A stretch of DNA of 64,000 nt from an uncultured Gammaproteobacteria bacterium (GTDB lineage Bacteria > Patescibacteriota > Microgenomatia > JAMCZE01): NCBI GenBank assembly GCA_964641255.1, contig CAZXMM010000001.1, forward strand, positions 473,984 through 537,983, written 5' to 3'. The position numbers were made by a program, and so were the translations under genes. The notes under the pieces are model-generated. The model did not search any database. It saw nothing but the letters and a program-made list of their open reading frames with translations, and was not told the origin of the DNA. Shown here in pieces: positions 24,349 to 50,313 of this stretch. Each line of letters starts with the position of its first letter. Position 1 is the first letter of the stretch.

Positions 24349-24887
24349 AAGTAAGTACGAGCTTTGGTGTGGTTCTTAGACGTGACAACTTCGGTGAAGC
24401 TGACAAACTGATTACGCTTTTCACTCGTGATCAAGGGAAAATTAAGGTGCTCGCCAAAGGCATAAGACGGATCAAAAGTCGCCGCGCCTCTCATCTCGAG
24501 TTGTTTAACTCCGTTACGGTCACTCTCTATCAAGGCATAAAATGGCCGATTGTTTCTGGAGCTAAAGAAAAGAAACTTCTTTCCACCGCTAAAACTGACC
24601 TTAAAAAGGCTGCCTACCTGTTTTACATAGCGGAAGTGGTGGAGAGACTCCTTCCTGAGAACCAGTCGCATCCGGATGTTTACGCACTTCTTACAAGTGC
24701 TTTACTGGATCTGGAAACTTGTAGTAATGAAGAAGTTAGAGAAAAAGTTAAAGAGTTTGTCATTGCTTTACTTTGGCTTCTAGGCTACCTTCCCAGGGGG
24801 CAGTACCCAGAACTGGGAGTAACTGCACTGGTTGAGGAAATCCTTGAGCACAGGATTAAAAGCGTGTCTTTTATTGACAAAATCTAG
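24345..24887 (+). CDS. recO: DNA repair protein RecO (short form)
   Basis: N-terminal OB-fold pattern 'GVVLRRDNFGEADKLITLFTRDQGKIKVLAKGIRRIKSRRAS'. GTG start in a GTGA overlap with the upstream stop. Confidence 0.55.
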   Translation: MKVSTSFGVVLRRDNFGEADKLITLFTRDQGKIKVLAKGIRRIKSRRASHLELFNSVTVTLYQGIKWPIVSGAKEKKLLSTAKTDLKKAAYLFYIAEVVERLLPENQSHPDVYALLTSALLDLETCSNEEVREKVKEFVIALLWLLGYLPRGQYPELGVTALVEEILEHRIKSVSFIDKI

Positions 24888-25258
24888 ACTGCAGTGTGTT
24901 GGTGATGGGGATGAATTGTTTCGAGTTTTTCTACGCGATCGTCAATTTCGTTGATTTGAGAAGTTCGCCTATTTAACATTGTTTGTTCTTCGCGCATGGC
25001 TCTCATTTCCCCTACAAACTCGTCCTTCATTTGAACAACATCATTACGATATTCGGCAACTAATTCCTTGAGAGAACTAATAATCTCCTCTTTGAAGCGA
25101 GCAAACTTAAGATCTAGTTTTTGTTCAAAAGGCGTAAGTTCTTCTTTTACTACTTCTCGAACGATCTTTTTGAGCACGGTATCTGTTTGCATGTAATTCA
25201 TAATAGCAAGGGTAAAGGAATTTACAATATTGTAATTTAATAAAAAGCGGAATAACAT
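24884..25258 (-). CDS. Hypothetical coiled-coil protein; real start possibly the internal Met at 25201
   Basis: ORF only. A charged helical sequence with no recognisable domain. Confidence 0.3.
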   Translation of the reverse strand: MLFRFLLNYNIVNSFTLAIMNYMQTDTVLKKIVREVVKEELTPFEQKLDLKFARFKEEIISSLKELVAEYRNDVVQMKDEFVGEMRAMREEQTMLNRRTSQINEIDDRVEKLETIHPHHQHTAV

Positions 25259-25279
25259 ATAGGTAGGTTTGGTGATGAT

Positions 25280-25390
25280 TGCACTGGCACTGCAGGAGCC
25301 ACTATCAAAAATTAAGAAGTAACAAGGGTGGAACCACGGCTATGACCGTCCCTTATATCAGGTTGTTGATGTAGTGAGGACGGATTTTTT
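25280..25390 (+). promoter_or_regulatory. Compact T-box-like riboswitch leader (Gly specifier GGC) preceding the MazG-like/glyQS genes
   Basis: T-box sequence 'AAGGGTGGAACCACGG' at 25324-25339. A canonical antiterminator can be drawn: A1 aaggg/ccctt, 7-nt bulge UGGAACC, A2 acgg/ccgt. A competing hairpin ccgtcc(25346-25351)/ggacgg(25378-25383) plus T6 runs into the ATG and sequesters a GAGGA SD. The small hairpin TGCA-cuGGCAc-TGCA (25280-25294) displays GGC+A. Confidence 0.5.
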
Positions 25391-25492
25391 ATGGATTTTC
25401 AAACACTTAATAAGCGAGCACAGGAAGTGCGAATAAAATACGATAACTTAAATCGCACTCAACGGGGAAAATCCTGGGGCAATGAGTAGCTC

Positions 25493-25717
25493 ATGGAAGG
25501 TCTAGTAGGAGATATAGGGGACCTGATGAAGCTCGTCATGGCCAAAGAGGGTTGGCGGGCGGGAGATGATATTGATAATAAACTGGCCCATGAGCTGTCC
25601 GATTGTCTGTGGGTACTGTTGGTTCTTGCCGATCGCTATAACATTAAACTTGATGAAACTTTTCTAAAAACAATGGATGAGTTAGATAGTCGGATTGCTA
25701 AAGAATTAGGGAAATAA
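25493..25717 (+). CDS. MazG-like nucleotide pyrophosphohydrolase, C-terminal segment. The upstream 32 codons (25391-25486) continue the same domain but are separated by an in-frame TAG at 25487-25489.
   Basis: 'EGLVGDIGDLMKLV...AHELSDCLWVLLVLADRYNIKLDETF' matches the EVGEL/ELaDvl motifs of the MazG-like family. The N-terminal helix 'MDFQTLNKRAQEVRIKYD' is encoded in-frame upstream of the TAG. Confidence 0.6.
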   Translation: MEGLVGDIGDLMKLVMAKEGWRAGDDIDNKLAHELSDCLWVLLVLADRYNIKLDETFLKTMDELDSRIAKELGK

Positions 25718-25718
25718 C

Positions 25719-27104
25719 ATGGAAAGCACCACGCTTGAAAAAATTATCGCTCTTTGTAAACGTCGGGGCTTTGTTTTTCCTACCTCAGAAATTTACGGGG
25801 GACTGGCTAATTCCTATGACTACGGGCCTGTAGGTGCGCCCCTGCTTCGTAATATTCGCAACCTGTGGTGGAGAGAATTTATTGAGAAAAGGATTGATAT
25901 GGTGGGGATCGACAGCCAAATTCTTCTCCACCCTCGTACTTGGGAGGCCTCAGGGCATGTGGGTAGTTTTAATGACCCCGCTGTTACAGACAGTCTTAAT
26001 CACAAGCGCTACCGTGCCGATCATTTGATTGAAGCCTGGCTGAAAAAAAATCCCAAGGCGGAACAAATTGTCGTGGAAAACTTAAGCATCGAGCAAATGG
26101 GAGAGTTCATAGAGGAGAATAAAATCACGAGTCCGGAAGGGAACTCTTTGTCAAAACCCCAGCAATTTAATCAACTGTTTGAAACCCATATTGGAGCGGT
26201 GGAGGGAGATAAGTCACTGGTTTATCTTCGTGGTGAGACAGCCCAAGGCATCTTTACTGATTTTAAAAGCGTTGTTGATAGCTCTCGAGTAAAACTCCCC
26301 TTTGGTATTGGCCAAATTGGCAAAAGTTTCCGAAATGAAATCACCACTGGGCAATTTGTTTTTCGTACCCTTGAGCTGGAGCAAGCGGAGATCGAGTATT
26401 TCTTTGATCCCGAAGTTACAAACTGGGAAACATTGATGGAGGAGTGGAAAAGTTCTATGTGGTCGTTTGTTACGAAAACATTGGGTGTCAGTGAAAATAA
26501 ATTGCGCTGGCGCAGGCACACCGATAAAGAACGAAGCCACTATAGTAAAGATACTTATGATCTCGATTTTGAGTTCCCCTTTGGTTTTAAGGAACTGTGG
26601 GGAATTGCTTACCGCACTGATTATGACCTTAAGCAACATATGGAATTTTCGGGGCAAAGTCTTATGTACCGAGACCCAAATAGTGGCAAAGAGTTTATCC
26701 CCCATGTTATCGAGCCTGCAGTCGGGGTCAACAGACTTTTCCTGATGGTGCTTTGTAGTGCCTATACCGAAGAAGAAAACCGGGTAGTACTTAAACTTGC
26801 TCCCAAGCTCGCCCCCTACAAAGTGGCTGTTTTCCCACTGGTAGGGAATAAAGAAAATATCACAGCTAAAGCTTTGGAGGTTTTTAGAGAATTGAATGAT
26901 CAAATGCCCACAGTGTGGGACGATCGGGGCAATATTGGAAAGAGATACCTTGCTCAAGATGAAATTGGTACTCCCTGGTGCGTTACTATTGATTACCAAA
27001 CTTTAGAAGATAGCACCGTGACAGTCCGTGACCGTGACACCACTTTACAAGACCGGATTGCAGTTGCTAATCTTAAAGAATACTTTTATGCCAAACTTAA
27101 TTAG
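25719..27104 (+). CDS. glyQS: Glycine--tRNA ligase, dimeric alpha2 type
   Basis: 'KRRGFVFPTSEIYGGLANSYDYGPVGAPLLRNI' and class II motifs; 461 aa. Confidence 0.9.
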   Translation: MESTTLEKIIALCKRRGFVFPTSEIYGGLANSYDYGPVGAPLLRNIRNLWWREFIEKRIDMVGIDSQILLHPRTWEASGHVGSFNDPAVTDSLNHKRYRADHLIEAWLKKNPKAEQIVVENLSIEQMGEFIEENKITSPEGNSLSKPQQFNQLFETHIGAVEGDKSLVYLRGETAQGIFTDFKSVVDSSRVKLPFGIGQIGKSFRNEITTGQFVFRTLELEQAEIEYFFDPEVTNWETLMEEWKSSMWSFVTKTLGVSENKLRWRRHTDKERSHYSKDTYDLDFEFPFGFKELWGIAYRTDYDLKQHMEFSGQSLMYRDPNSGKEFIPHVIEPAVGVNRLFLMVLCSAYTEEENRVVLKLAPKLAPYKVAVFPLVGNKENITAKALEVFRELNDQMPTVWDDRGNIGKRYLAQDEIGTPWCVTIDYQTLEDSTVTVRDRDTTLQDRIAVANLKEYFYAKLN

Positions 27105-45838: not shown

Positions 45839-47244
45839 GTAAAACCTTCCGAAACAAACTAATTTTGGCAGGCGTCTCGGTTTTTCTTCAAGCGCTTCTC
45901 AATAGCGTTACTACTATTGTTATCTTCATGGAACTTTATTTTTTCCCCTGGCTTGTAAAGGTGGGACAGATACCTTACAAAGACTTTTTTGATCACCACG
46001 GATTTCTTATTTACCTTCTTCTCGCACCTTTGGCACTGGCGGGCGATGTCAGCTTACTTAAATGGCTGACCATCGTCATCAGTGCAGTAAATCTTTTGCT
46101 GTTTTTGTTCCTACTTCGCAAATATAGCGTCAGAATCATGGCTGTGGGGGCCACTCTCTTTATACTCTTTTCGTATGTTATGGTCCAAAATACCCTGTCA
46201 TACGACCTATTTTTGATGCCGGTCTTTCTTGGCGTTGCCGCTCTATTACAGGTACCAGCACCAAAGCATAGTAGCTTGGTAGGAGTTGCTTTGGGAACAT
46301 TAATCGCTAGTGTTAGCCTCATAAAGTTTCTTCCTGGACTATTAGTACTAGCGCTAGTACTCTATTTTAGAAAAGCTGTTTACTACGTTCTTGGGGTCTT
46401 TTTTCTGTCTTGGATGGCTGCTCTTAGCTACCTAGTCTATTTTGGTGCCCTTAGCGACTTTATTGACGGGTATTTTCGCTTTAACACCTTTCTTCTTTGG
46501 CGAATGCCACTTATCAAATTTGATGGCCTGCTAGATCCGCAGCTACCAATTCTGGCGGTGCTCGGGACTGTGCTCGCCGCCGCGTTTCGCCTAGCAGCGC
46601 ACAACTCTCGGGTAATTGGTAAAGACGGCCAACTCTACTGGGCACTCATACTCAGCGCACTTCCATTTCTGGCGTCGGGAATTCATGTTGGCCACCTCTT
46701 AGCCCTTTTCCCCTTTGTTCTTCTGCTGTTCCTCGGTCACTACTCAGAGCTAACACGAGTAAAGAAAAAATCTTGGAGTGTTTTACTAATAGTTCTAGTG
46801 GTGGCCCTTGTGCTAATTGCAGGGCGAACCTTTCGTCATCTAAACTTTAGAGTCACTGAATATGTTAACGACCCGATCTCGGCGTCAATTATCTCCCTGT
46901 TGCAACAAAGAAAACTGGAGCGAAAACGTCTTTTTATAAACGCTGGCTATATCAACGTTTACTACCTACTCGATAATCCTTCCCTTCACCGTTATCCGAT
47001 GAAGTTTCCCCTCATGCCTTACCCAAAACTTGAGGAATTCAACCCAGATTATGAAGCGAGCTTGATAAGGAGCCTAGTGGACAGGGACGTGGAAGTAGTG
47101 GTGTGGGTGACCCGCCCCTATCAACAGTGGGGAGAGTTAAGGGGTCTTCATTTGTTTGTCCAACATAACTATCAGTTGGTGGAGAAAGTTGATACTCCTG
47201 TTGTCAAATTTGTGCTCTACCAAAAGTCATTTCGGGGTGTATAA
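45835..47244 (+). CDS. Polytopic membrane protein (possible GT-C-like) with a C-terminal soluble domain
   Basis: 469 aa, about 11 TM helices. The stop/start junction with the preceding ORF is shared. Confidence 0.4.
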   Translation: MSKTFRNKLILAGVSVFLQALLNSVTTIVIFMELYFFPWLVKVGQIPYKDFFDHHGFLIYLLLAPLALAGDVSLLKWLTIVISAVNLLLFLFLLRKYSVRIMAVGATLFILFSYVMVQNTLSYDLFLMPVFLGVAALLQVPAPKHSSLVGVALGTLIASVSLIKFLPGLLVLALVLYFRKAVYYVLGVFFLSWMAALSYLVYFGALSDFIDGYFRFNTFLLWRMPLIKFDGLLDPQLPILAVLGTVLAAAFRLAAHNSRVIGKDGQLYWALILSALPFLASGIHVGHLLALFPFVLLLFLGHYSELTRVKKKSWSVLLIVLVVALVLIAGRTFRHLNFRVTEYVNDPISASIISLLQQRKLERKRLFINAGYINVYYLLDNPSLHRYPMKFPLMPYPKLEEFNPDYEASLIRSLVDRDVEVVVWVTRPYQQWGELRGLHLFVQHNYQLVEKVDTPVVKFVLYQKSFRGV

Positions 47245-47245
47245 T

Positions 47246-47400
47246 ATTAGTCAAAGGCGGTGAAGGAGCTATCACTCCCGAGCTTAGGAAGAACGGCGCA
47301 AGCTTAGTAGACCCTGCTAAATGAGAAGTAAACAAGGTGGTACCACGTTTCGATTAACCTCGATCCGTCCTTGCACAGTAGTGGATTGGCGGATTTTTTT
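47246..47400 (+). promoter_or_regulatory. Compact T-box riboswitch leader (Ile specifier AUC) controlling ileS
   Basis: T-box 'CAAGGTGGTACCACG' at 47333-47347 with an antiterminator: A1 caagg/ccttg(47369-47373), bulge UGGUACC, A2 acg/cgt. Competing helix atccg(t)cc(47363-47370)/ggcggat(47388-47394) followed by T6 runs into the ATG and occludes a GGA SD. Hairpin GGAG-cuAUCA-CUCC (47265-47278) presents AUC+A. A TATAAT -10 candidate lies at 47240-47245. Confidence 0.6.
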
Positions 47401-50313
47401 ATGGCAAAAAAACCCACATTTTCGGCTGTACCCAGCCAAGTAGATTTTCCCGCTAAGGAGCGGGAACTGCTTGAGTTCTGGTACAAAACCGGAATTGTTG
47501 ATAAGCATCTTCACAAAAACGACAAGGCCAAAAAAACCTTCTCTTTTATTGATGGTCCTATTACTGCCAATAATCCGATGGGGGTTCACCATGCCTGGGG
47601 CCGAAGTTATAAAGACCTCTGGCAGCGTTATCACACCATGAAAGGGGAGGCACAGCGCCATCAAAATGGTTTTGATTGTCAAGGACTGTGGGTTGAAGTC
47701 GAAGTCGAAAAGGAGCTTGGCTTTAAAAGCAAAAAAGATATCGAAGTTTACGGAGTAGGGAACTTTGTTAATCGCTGTAAAGAGCGCGTCCTTAAATTCT
47801 CTGCGATCCAAACCGAACAAACTAAACGCCTCGGTAACTTCATGGATTGGGACAATTCCTACTTTACGATGAGTGACGAGAATAACTTCATGATTTGGCA
47901 CGCTCTAAAAACCTGTTGGCAGCGGGGCTGGATCTATAAAGGGCATGAGTCTGTACCCTGGTGCCCCAGGTGTGAAACTGCTATTTCTCAGCACGAAATG
48001 CTCACTGAAGACTATAAAGAAGTGACTCACCAGTCTGTCTATTTTGCCCTCCCGCTACTGGGGACCGGTAATGAACACCTGCTTGTCTGGACGACTACTC
48101 CCTGGACGCTTCCGGCCAACATTGCCGTGGCAGTTGATACTACTTTTGACTATGTGTTAGTTGCCGGTGGTAATGGGAGGAACTATTGGGTAGTAAAAGG
48201 GAAAGAAAATTTAGTTTCGCTTACTCCAAGCGTTCTTAAAGAAGTAAAAGGCAAAGAGTTGGTGGGACTAAAATACGAGGGATTGTTTGACACTTTGGCA
48301 AAAGTTAAAAAAGTAGCACGGGAACACCCCAAGTTTCATACGGTCGTTGCCACTGATCCCCGCATCATGCCGATTACTAAGACTGAAGGAACGGGCCTTG
48401 TTCATACTGCCGTAAGTGCCGGAACTGAGGATTTTCAGTTGGGCAAGAAATTAGGACTTCCCATGATCCCCGTTATTGAGGACAACGCAGATTATCTTTC
48501 TGATATGGATTTCCTTTCCGGATTAAATGCTAAGAAGCACCCTGAAGTTGTACTTGACTACTTACTAGCGGAAACGGAAAAGGGAAAACCGTGGATTTTT
48601 AAGATTGAAAACTACACTCATAGGTACCCTGCTTGCTGGCGATGTAAAACGGAACTAGTTTGGAAAGTTGCTGATGAATGGTACATCAGCATGGATACTC
48701 CTGACCCCACCGACAGTAAGAAGCGTACTTTACGACAGCAGCTAAAAGAGGTCGCGAAGAAGATTACCTGGCTACCAAGTTTTGGGCTGGATCGGGAACT
48801 GGACTGGTTAACCAACATGCACGATTGGCTCATCTCCAAGAAAAATCGCTACTGGGGACTCGCTCTTCCTATCTATGAATGTGGTAAATGTGGCCACTTT
48901 GAGGTAATCGGCGGAAAAGAGGAATTAAAAAAAAGAGCGGTTACTGGTTGGGATCAGTTCCTTGGTAACTCTCCTCACAAACCTTGGATTGATGAAGTAA
49001 AAATTAATTGTAGTCAGTGTGGGGAGGCTGTTCCACGTATTCCTGATGTGGGTAATGTCTGGCTCGATGCTGGTATTGTTCCCTTCTCGACGCTTCATTT
49101 CCTTGATGATCCAAAATACTGGGAAAAGTGGTTCCCAGCGGACTTTATCACCGAGTCATTTCCCGGTCAATTTAAAAACTGGTTTTATTCTCTTTTAGTC
49201 ATGGGAACTATTCTTACGAAATCTCCCCCATTTAAGACGGTCCTTGGATATGCCTCACTGCTTGCGGAAGACGGTCGTCCCATGCACAAGTCCTGGGGTA
49301 ACGCGATTGAATTTAATGAAGGGGCGGATAAAATTGGCGCCGATGTGATGCGGTGGATGTTTGCGTCAGCTAATCCCACAGACAACATGCTGTTTGGCTA
49401 TAAAAAGGCCGATGAAGTAAGACGCCGGTTTTTCTTAATTCTGTGGAATTGTTATAGCTTTTTCGTTAACTATTACAATGTTGATAGAGTTGACTTGGAA
49501 AAGAAAACCGAGTTTTCAGTCTTAGACTTCTGGATTATTAGCCGACTGGATGACACCGTAACTATCGTCACGCAAAAGCTTGATCGGTTTAGTGCCTATG
49601 AGGCCACCCAGGCCCTAGAGGGATTTGTTTCTGACTTTTCAACCTGGTACATTCGCCGAAGTCGGGGGCGGGTTGGTCCTGCGAATGTGGATGAAAACGA
49701 TAAGGTTGCTTTTTATCGCACCAGCTATACCGTACTCATAACTCTTTCGCAGTTATTGGCCCCAATAATGCCATTTGTCAGCGATGAGATCTATCGCAAT
49801 TTAACTTTCCAAGAGAGTGTCCATTTATCTGACTGGCCCAAAGTTTCTAAAAGCCACAGTCATCTGGCTAACCAAAAACCTCAGACGATTATGAAATTTG
49901 TTCGTCAAGTTACTGAACTGGGTCATGCTGAGCGAAAAGCTGCAAACATCAAGGTGCGTCAGCCCCTCTCTCTCATGACAATTACCGGTCCCTATAAGAC
50001 CATTGATTCAGATTTTGTCCAGATTATAAAAGAGGAATTAAATGTTAAAGGTGTTGTGCTCAAATATAAAAAGGGAGCGGAAGTGCAAGTGGTCTTTGAC
50101 CTAAAGCTTACCCCCGAACTAAGTGCTGAGGGCAAAGCCCGAGACATTATTCGGGAAATTCAAGATGCCAGAAAAGCTGCTGGTACGGCACTTGACGAAA
50201 AAGTCGTAGTTCATCTTCCCGATTGGCCCGAGGAATTCACGGAGTATATTGCCAAAGAGACACTTGCCAAACAATTAGTCAAAGGAACTGATCTCAGAGT
50301 GGAAAGACTGTAG
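47401..50313 (+). CDS. ileS: Isoleucine--tRNA ligase
   Basis: HIGH-like 'NPMGVHHAWG', editing domain, KMSKS-like 'MHKSWGN', and Zn-ribbon cysteines 'CPRCE...CGKCGHF...CSQCGE'. Confidence 0.9.
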   Translation: MAKKPTFSAVPSQVDFPAKERELLEFWYKTGIVDKHLHKNDKAKKTFSFIDGPITANNPMGVHHAWGRSYKDLWQRYHTMKGEAQRHQNGFDCQGLWVEVEVEKELGFKSKKDIEVYGVGNFVNRCKERVLKFSAIQTEQTKRLGNFMDWDNSYFTMSDENNFMIWHALKTCWQRGWIYKGHESVPWCPRCETAISQHEMLTEDYKEVTHQSVYFALPLLGTGNEHLLVWTTTPWTLPANIAVAVDTTFDYVLVAGGNGRNYWVVKGKENLVSLTPSVLKEVKGKELVGLKYEGLFDTLAKVKKVAREHPKFHTVVATDPRIMPITKTEGTGLVHTAVSAGTEDFQLGKKLGLPMIPVIEDNADYLSDMDFLSGLNAKKHPEVVLDYLLAETEKGKPWIFKIENYTHRYPACWRCKTELVWKVADEWYISMDTPDPTDSKKRTLRQQLKEVAKKITWLPSFGLDRELDWLTNMHDWLISKKNRYWGLALPIYECGKCGHFEVIGGKEELKKRAVTGWDQFLGNSPHKPWIDEVKINCSQCGEAVPRIPDVGNVWLDAGIVPFSTLHFLDDPKYWEKWFPADFITESFPGQFKNWFYSLLVMGTILTKSPPFKTVLGYASLLAEDGRPMHKSWGNAIEFNEGADKIGADVMRWMFASANPTDNMLFGYKKADEVRRRFFLILWNCYSFFVNYYNVDRVDLEKKTEFSVLDFWIISRLDDTVTIVTQKLDRFSAYEATQALEGFVSDFSTWYIRRSRGRVGPANVDENDKVAFYRTSYTVLITLSQLLAPIMPFVSDEIYRNLTFQESVHLSDWPKVSKSHSHLANQKPQTIMKFVRQVTELGHAERKAANIKVRQPLSLMTITGPYKTIDSDFVQIIKEELNVKGVVLKYKKGAEVQVVFDLKLTPELSAEGKARDIIREIQDARKAAGTALDEKVVVHLPDWPEEFTEYIAKETLAKQLVKGTDLRVERL

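Follow-up and report, generated by a model that had tools for sequence, protein, structure and literature searches.

The mazG-like/glyS operon in the 64-kb stretch of DNA analyzed here (the window) is very probably controlled by a minimal glycine T-box riboswitch that acts mainly by transcription attenuation, a reading for which there are no experimental data. We are close to certain that the element is a homolog of glycine T-boxes, and we think it likely that it is a working tRNA-responsive switch in the window genome, tRNA binding and charge sensing being inferred. By sequence comparison, the leader is not confined to this genome: it belongs to a family represented in many Patescibacteria and Chloroflexota.

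Anatomy of the leader and its operon

The leader lies in a 132-bp gap that separates a MazG-like ORF on the plus strand from a divergent ORF on the minus strand; in this gap we read a complete glycine T-box of about 120 nt on the plus strand (25270–25390). It opens with an ultrashort Stem I of 32 nt (25270–25301), UGGU-GAU-GA-UUGCA-(CUGGCAC)-UGCAG-GA-GCCA. A 4-bp closing helix, the C-stem (UGGU 25270–73 with GCCA 25298–301), is followed by a K-turn (bulge GAU 25274–76, and GA 25277–78 opposite GA 25296–97) and a 5-bp upper helix (UUGCA 25279–83 with UGCAG 25291–95), which is capped by a 7-nt apical specifier loop, CUGGCAC (25284–90). The T-box criterion of a K-turn (GA motif) at the base of Stem I is fulfilled by the 3-nt bulge and tandem GA/GA between two covarying helices, and the layout is identical to that at the base of canonical T-box Stem I. 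Across the family, the position adjoining the GA pairs is U.G, A.G or G.G, a non-Watson-Crick pair as expected for position 3b.3n of a K-turn. The apical loop presents the glycine codon GGC followed by the purine A (25286–25289) and preceded by an invariant U (25285); this N-U-GGC-A-N arrangement has the format of an anticodon loop, with a U33-like U, three presented bases and a 3′ purine. The specifier test, that a codon in Stem I match the gene downstream, is likewise met by GGC-A and glycine–tRNA ligase. A preliminary description of this DNA had reported a 4-bp hairpin, UGCA-CUGGCAC-UGCA, displaying GGC-A. The hairpin is present (25280–94), not as a bare hairpin but as the top of the K-turn stem, so the element starts 10 nt before position 25280, where it had been taken to begin.

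Stem I is followed by a single-stranded, purine-rich linker of 22 nt, CUAUCAAAAAUUAAGAAGUAAC (25302–25323), with the purine string AAGAAG at 25314–19. No Stem II, IIA/B pseudoknot or Stem III was found in this linker, which folds at 0 kcal/mol (ViennaRNA); with its leader of about 120 nt and Stem I of 32 nt, the element is indeed far shorter than canonical T-boxes, as had been proposed. The T-box sequence AAGGGUGGAACCACGG (25324–25339) begins a canonical antiterminator (25324–25354; −8.4 kcal/mol, ViennaRNA), made up of helix A1 (AAGGG 25324–28 with CCCUU 25350–54), the 7-nt T-box bulge UGGAACC (25329–35) and helix A2 (ACGG 25336–39 with CCGU 25346–49, loop CUAUGA). It passes the antiterminator test, which asks for A1 and A2 flanking a 7-nt UGGNACC bulge, and is aligned to the Rfam model with high posterior probability.

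An intrinsic terminator (25346–25390) competes with this fold. Its hairpin (25346–25383) is built on the helix CCGUCC 25346–51/GGACGG 25378–83 and is followed by U6 (25385–90), which abuts the AUG at 25391. Because the 5′ arm of the terminator consists of the 3′ strands of A2 and A1, terminator and antiterminator exclude each other, and this reuse of the A1/A2 strands meets the membership test for an alternative terminator. The terminator has a predicted energy of −18.5 kcal/mol (z = −4.2; 0/200 shuffles as good, ViennaRNA), and both energies fall within the range reported by TBDB for typical T-boxes (antiterminator −7.4 ± 4.2, terminator −19.5 ± 7.9). The Shine-Dalgarno sequence GAGGA (25376–80) is located inside the terminator 3′ arm, 10 nt before the AUG. 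The anatomy and the mutually exclusive folds, which we thus demonstrate at the level of sequence, agree with the preliminary description: all elements of its A1/A2 antiterminator with the UGGAACC bulge were at the positions it gave, the exclusive helix with U6 running into the ATG and the buried GAGGA are present, and the alternative-fold calculation that it proposed yielded the two energies above.

Upstream of Stem I, we read from the sequence a putative plus-strand promoter (25230–25258) with a −35 box TTGTAA (25230–35), a 17-nt spacer and a −10 box TAACAT (25253–58). It matches at 8 of 12 positions and falls under the threshold of the promoter scan; TTGTAA-17-TAACAT can be aligned to the TTGACA-17-GACAAT promoter of a close relative, L132. 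From this reading we infer, without having shown it, a transcription start at about 25265, 4–5 nt 5′ of Stem I, in which case the entire 5′ UTR (about 125 nt) would be riboswitch. Strong sigma-70-type promoters lie 8–22 nt 5′ of Stem I in L057, L009 and L132; since promoters directly precede Stem I in these loci and, putatively, in the window, there is no space for a longer Stem I. The minus-strand neighbor was called mechanically as an ORF of 124 aa (24884–25258) and with a start at about 25201 in an independent assembly, and its true start is probably an internal ATG near 25201. Divergent promoters for the minus-strand ORF and the T-box operon appear to draw their −35 boxes, placed back to back, from a palindrome, TTACAA-TA-TTGTAA (25222–25235); the promoter scan called the minus-strand promoter at this palindrome.

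The first gene of the regulated operon is an ORF for a MazG-like NTP pyrophosphohydrolase (25391–25717, plus strand). It carries an in-frame TAG at 25487–89 (between ...SWGNE and LMEGLVGD...), which is seen in two assemblies, and an ATG 3 nt beyond, at 25493. Homologs are full length (103–110 aa); in P0121, a close relative with 92% identity, the TAG position is occupied by CAG (Gln). Reassignment of TAG was considered and rejected, as TAG closes 13/50 long ORFs in the window and the close relative has CAG (Gln). Because TAG is thus a normal stop in this genome and CAG stands in the relative, the codon is a nonsense mutation or an assembly error. The following ATG could permit re-initiation, giving a 74-aa product, and a nonsense codon in the first downstream gene means that some relaxed selection at the locus is possible. 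A MazG-like gene between leader and glyS was found in none of the 130 loci compared and only in L131, which is from the same organism as the window, and L132. One nucleotide past the MazG-like stop codon begins a 461-aa ORF (25719–27104, plus strand) with an equivalog-level match to dimeric (alpha2) glycine–tRNA ligase (NF003211, 589 bits against a cutoff of 312; TIGR00389 glyS_dimeric). This enzyme is the physiological target of the leader.

Conservation and covariation in related leaders

Standard annotation does not detect the element. An Rfam search at the gathering threshold returned no match, and a local search of 401 nt with RF00230, a check that the preliminary description had called for, gave only a sub-threshold match (22 bits, gathering threshold 93; E 0.006) in which only the 3′ half, the antiterminator, was credibly aligned. 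T-box was the only Rfam model with a significant (E < 0.01) match in the leader region. The Stem I placement in this alignment (25112–25230, within the minus-strand ORF) was rejected: its posterior probabilities are low, the real Stem I is at 25270–25301 and the promoter lies in between. Leaders of relatives score 27–40 bits with RF00230, and a second leader in the window, before ileS, scores 25 bits, all below 93; the family goes unannotated because the Rfam T-box model gives only such sub-threshold scores. We built two covariance models, R1 of the whole leader and R2 from seven leaders without Stem III that did not include the window. R2, which is not circular, aligns with the window leader over its full length and scores 71.9 bits (E 9.3e-15). 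When the 125 nt upstream were dinucleotide-shuffled 5000 times, no hairpin combining the K-turn with a GGCR loop and at least nine pairs arose, and the two strands of the 64 kb contain just one.

To compare homologous loci, we fetched those of GlyRS relatives from 80 species-level genomes (L001–L080), whose records are labelled as Woese-, Gottesman-, Ames- and Roizmanbacteria, other Patescibacteria, and Chloroflexota (e.g. Ardenticatenaceae, Promineifilaceae, Anaerolineae). A strict T-box core motif is present 70–275 nt 5′ of glyS in 27 of the 80 loci; in these 27 leaders the bulge is UGGA throughout, except for one UGGG, and 25 have a K-turn Stem I with apical loop 5′ of the core. With R1, the same ultrashort Stem I leader was found immediately 5′ of glyS in about 48 of the 80 loci, including those of the closest GlyRS relatives (L001–L004). 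Across the family UGGCA is invariant or nearly so, and one member, L122, has GGA, also a glycine codon. Many records of MAGs with a CPR-type GlyRS and this leader among L001–L080 are titled "uncultured Gammaproteobacteria/Pseudomonadales", which looks like mislabelled taxonomy.

Pairs were counted in a gap-free core alignment (A3) of 40 distinct leaders; MAFFT and cmalign alignments were set aside for this purpose, as A1/A2 were 1 nt out of register in some rows, the window included. Paired cells make up 96.1% of A3, compared with 34–48% when the structure is slid by 1–3 columns, and 14/16 pairs show changes on both sides. The covariation score of 0.674 (0.209 in shuffles) was reached in 0/500 shuffles. 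Compensatory changes occur in the seven scored Stem I pairs, and A1 and A2 also covary. The pairing finder demands some complementarity, which inflates the figure of 96.1%; the finder does not account for the range of different pair types seen at set distances from the invariant GA...UGGCA...GA. Conservation and covariation are thus demonstrated for the family, and the covarying A1/A2 helices and conserved GGC loop are what the homologous-locus comparison suggested in the preliminary description had looked for. The claim made there of a glycine-specific element with GGC in an apical loop, 5′ of the MazG-like and glyS genes, is supported by this comparative evidence (UGGCA conservation, covariation and R2).

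Comparison with the close relative L132 (MazG-like protein 92% identical, GlyRS 83.5%) showed the same Stem I and terminator as in the window. Two features that L132 retains are absent from the window, an 8-bp Stem III and a G.U pair at the A2 base; the other differences lie in loops or preserve pairing, a pattern that we take, on the strength of the sequences, as purifying selection.

Stem III and other compact T-boxes

Most family members have a hairpin directly before AA and A1, with a purine string 5′ of it (e.g. AAAGUG-stem-AA), which is the discriminator motif published as RRRxG-Stem III-AA (PMC7583486). The window does not meet the Stem III discriminator test (RRRxG ... AA) and keeps the purine string as AGAAG...AA. 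Only an unstructured linker of 17–22 nt stands in place of Stem III in the window, L005 and L009, and the family members without Stem III comprise the window and about 10 others. Scanning metagenomes with the linker/T-box junction motif, we obtained 50 loci (L081–L130), among them eight CPR-type ultrashort glycine leaders (L089, L092, L098, L105, L111, L115, L122 and L129). Most of the eight lack Stem III; L115 has an AU hairpin and L092 a hairpin further upstream, and GlyRS is directly downstream wherever the contig is long enough. The linker motif AAUUAAGAAGYAAnnAGGG is common to the window, L009, L089, L105, L129 and others. For eight leaders without Stem III, RNAalifold predicted Stem I and the antiterminator and no helix in the linker.

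A hidden Stem III in the window was considered and rejected, there being only 2–3 A-U pairs (UUA/UAA), a fold of 0 kcal/mol and no covariation. A vestigial micro-stem is not fully excluded, because AAGAAGU forms the loop of a 5–6-bp AU hairpin in many unrelated gut thrS leaders and in L115; the window linker may be a collapsed version of this AU micro-stem, of which at most 2–3 A-U pairs remain. The thrS T-boxes concerned, from gut metagenomes (about 35 loci in L081–L130, e.g. L086 12254), carry AAGAAGUAAUUAGGGUGGAACC; a 6-bp AU hairpin (CUAAUU/AAUUAG) directly adjoining A1 holds the purine string in its loop and stands where the canonical RRRxG-Stem III-AA would be.

Further compact T-boxes came to light during the analysis. 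The window itself contains a second one at 47252–47400 (plus strand), before ileS (47401–50310; TIGR00392 equivalog) and after a TATAAT box at 47240–45. Its Stem I, AGGC-GGU-GA-AGGA-[GCUAUCAC]-UCCC-GA-GCUU, has an apical loop with the Ile specifier AUC and A; downstream come first a 7-bp hairpin (UUAGUAG/CUGCUAA), conceivably a reduced Stem II, and then a junction without Stem III, GAGAAGUAAACAAGG, as in the glycine leader. Its bulge is UGGU (A73), its terminator with U7 runs into the AUG, and it scores 39 bits with R1 (E 3.5e-8), 23.7 bits with R2 and, as noted above, 25 bits with Rfam. Tandem glycine T-boxes occur on two CPR-type metagenome contigs (L098 895–1170 and L105 773–1025): the first of each pair has no Stem III, a GGC specifier and its own terminator, and the second, about 60 nt on, has an ultrashort Stem I, a Stem III and the apical loop U-GGA-A, and would sense a second tRNA-Gly isoacceptor. 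A tyrS leader (L087 9873–9977, minus strand) on a contig of low GC content from a gut metagenome has an ultrashort K-turn Stem I with the loop CUUACAA (UAC and A) and a UGGU bulge; the same contig has a canonical long-Stem I thrS T-box. From the L087 leader, apical-specifier T-boxes may be more widespread than Actinobacteria, CPR and Chloroflexota.

Proposed tRNA recognition, rival readings and known T-box classes

We propose that transcription would begin about 5 nt 5′ of Stem I, and that the K-turn stem would then present U-GGC-A in its 7-nt apical loop to the GCC anticodon of tRNA-Gly. In complexes of two tRNAs joined by their anticodon loops, a 7-nt loop N-U-NNN-R-N pairs three bases with a complementary anticodon loop. 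The contact predicted here would be a loop-loop kissing of the same kind, with GGC/GCC forming three G-C pairs; it is an analogy only, the partner in the window being an mRNA hairpin on a K-turn stem. The purine-rich single strand of about 22 nt would link Stem I to the antiterminator, whose UGGA bulge may pair with the free 3′-UCCA of uncharged tRNA-Gly, stabilizing the antiterminator, which is weak (−8.4 kcal/mol), in its competition with the stronger terminator (−18.5 kcal/mol and U6). With uncharged tRNA bound, RNA polymerase would read through and the Shine-Dalgarno sequence would be exposed. With charged tRNA, the terminator would form and transcription would stop at the U-tract abutting the AUG, and in transcripts that escape termination the same hairpin is predicted to sequester the Shine-Dalgarno sequence.

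Binding of tRNA and discrimination of its charging state are inferred, and the evidence on the tRNA partner is indirect. Bacterial tRNA-Gly has U73, and tRNA-Ile and tRNA-Tyr have A73. In essentially every glyS leader found, the bulge reads UGGA, with UGGG in a single case, and the Ile and Tyr leaders show UGGU, a distribution consistent with U73 versus A73. Specifier and bulge base are both observed to match the amino acid. No tRNA-Gly gene was found in the window, and none from a CPR genome in any fetched locus; the only tRNA-Gly(GCC) genes found, in unrelated loci, have U73.

Three other readings of the leader have to be weighed. We give scarcely any credence to a chance resemblance, or to a mere terminator of an upstream transcript: the Rfam match is sub-threshold, and AT-rich intergenic DNA often contains short hairpins and U-runs, but the upstream neighbor is divergent, with back-to-back −35 boxes, and, as it lies on the minus strand, there is no plus-strand transcript to terminate. 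Covariation and conservation across dozens of genomes, the failure of 5000 shuffles to reproduce Stem I and the R2 match (E 9e-15) already effectively refute this reading. It is also very improbable that the leader acts mainly on translation, as T-boxes of the actinobacterial ileS class do by means of a sequestrator and an anti-sequestrator, and that the U-run is incidental. GAGGA does lie in the hairpin 3′ arm, 10 nt before the AUG, this type of Stem I has so far been known only from translational T-boxes, and a few relatives (L115, L041, L066) have no U-run. However, U6 is directly 3′ of the window hairpin, and 35/42 relatives have an equivalent hairpin, overlapping the A1/A2 3′ strands, with a run of U5–8. 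Where the distance was read (e.g. L033, L009, L057), this hairpin is tens to about 200 nt 5′ of the start codon and cannot sequester a Shine-Dalgarno sequence, and in L132 the same terminator as in the window stands about 30 nt from the ATG. Because the terminator is well upstream of the start codon where this was read, the family is predominantly transcriptional; in the window, transcriptional and translational modes can coexist.

More serious is the possibility that the window leader is a decaying relic, no longer tRNA-responsive, in which nothing but a constitutive (leaky) terminator, or a hairpin that sequesters the Shine-Dalgarno sequence, remained once Stem III had gone. We consider this unlikely, even though L132 retains the 8-bp Stem III and the A2-base G.U, the adjoining MazG-like ORF has suffered a CAG-to-TAG nonsense change and Stem III has been called indispensable (PMC7583486). 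The window retains all invariant T-box positions, and the motif without Stem III, AAUUAAGAAGYAAnnAGGGUGGAACCACG, is kept in at least 10 other leaders from divergent genomes; glyS is intact in these genomes, with GlyRS only 43–70% identical, and the leaders themselves have terminators that are intact and a Stem I that covaries. The ileS leader of the window repeats the AGAAGUAA-AC-AAGG junction. Furthermore, glyS is essential and lies behind a terminator of −18.5 kcal/mol, so an anti-termination mechanism is needed.

A functional glycine T-box of this architecture would have to work with neither elbow platform nor Stem II nor Stem III, and that it does so is inferred. A truncated Stem I is reported to bind tRNA barely in the absence of Stem II, and an antiterminator lacking Stem III is argued not to bind tRNA at all, Stem III being termed "indispensable" (PMC7583486); the window leader, which has neither Stem II nor Stem III, runs counter to these requirements. 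For glycyl T-boxes, the unusual stability of the GGC:GCC duplex has been proposed to make Stem II dispensable (PMC11404447).

Four T-box classes have been distinguished (PMC10482949): Class I with a long Stem I and Stem II; Class II, the glyQS type, which has a long Stem I but lacks Stem II; Class III with a short Stem I, an apical specifier and a required Stem II, mostly translational ileS leaders of Actinobacteria; and Class IV with an intermediate Stem I. The window leader resembles Class II glyQS leaders (Bacillus subtilis, Geobacillus kaustophilus, Oceanobacillus iheyensis) in its glycine specificity, its GGC specifier followed by A, the K-turn at the base of Stem I, a single-stranded linker without Stem II or IIA/B, the UGGA bulge, the competition of terminator and antiterminator, and the regulation of a glycyl-tRNA synthetase gene. 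It differs in its Stem I of 32 nt with an apical-loop specifier and no platform, in lacking the Stem III of Class II and in regulating an alpha2 rather than an alpha2beta2 enzyme. With this length and specifier position and a promoter directly upstream, it fails the test for a Class I/II transcriptional Stem I. Class III (ileS of Mycobacterium tuberculosis and Nocardia farcinica), as far as Sherwood et al. 2015 is represented in PMC7583486 and PMC10482949, shares with the window a short K-turn Stem I, the absence of an elbow platform and a specifier in a small apical loop, and the corresponding Stem I test is met. In the same accounts, Class III is Ile-specific and actinobacterial, acts on translation initiation, keeps Stem III and needs a Stem II S-turn domain and a IIA/B pseudoknot for tRNA binding. 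The window, with 22 unstructured nt between Stem I and A1, does not meet the test for Stem II S-turn and IIA/B elements, and in the present glycine family Stem II is absent and an intrinsic terminator closes the leader. The resemblance to the actinobacterial ultrashort Stem I noted in the preliminary description therefore holds for Stem I alone and does not extend to the rest of the leader, which lacks Stem II and III and carries a terminator, as do 35/42 relatives. Combining a Class III-type Stem I with the glycine specificity of Class II, no Stem II and a terminator, the glycine family fits none of the four classes.

In the literature open to our searches, we found no account of T-boxes in CPR/Patescibacteria or of a glycyl apical-specifier T-box; an earlier mention of a Chloroflexota variant is not excluded. 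The element is real and conserved, it is almost certainly a T-box, and the architectural variant is apparently undescribed. The novelty claimed in the preliminary description for a small-genome, CPR-like bacterium stands insofar as we found no published account; it needs widening, since about 48/80 glyS loci, in both Patescibacteria and Chloroflexota, carry the leader. On balance, we lean toward regarding these leaders as a fifth T-box class, transcriptional and with two tRNA contacts only, the specifier hairpin and the NCCA-binding bulge, in which there is no elbow platform and no Stem II and, in the subclass of the window, no Stem III either. If so, this would be the smallest natural tRNA-sensing riboswitch, with a sensing domain of about 85 nt, and the class would be widespread in Patescibacteria/CPR and Chloroflexota and invisible to Rfam-based annotation.

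A covarying, terminator-bearing family of this kind contradicts the claims of reviews that transcriptional T-boxes need a long elbow-platform Stem I and that a truncated Stem I needs Stem II, and the window subclass contradicts the claim that the tRNA 3′ end cannot be sensed without Stem III. If this reading is true, T-box elements held to be indispensable are accessory, or their role is taken in these lineages by an unknown trans factor. The family is a natural minimal system for what tRNA recognition and charge sensing truly require, and its small size makes it attractive for structural work and for synthetic tRNA-responsive switches. To our knowledge, very few regulators are known in reduced-genome CPR bacteria; these organisms use T-boxes for at least glyS and ileS, all of which standard Rfam thresholds miss.
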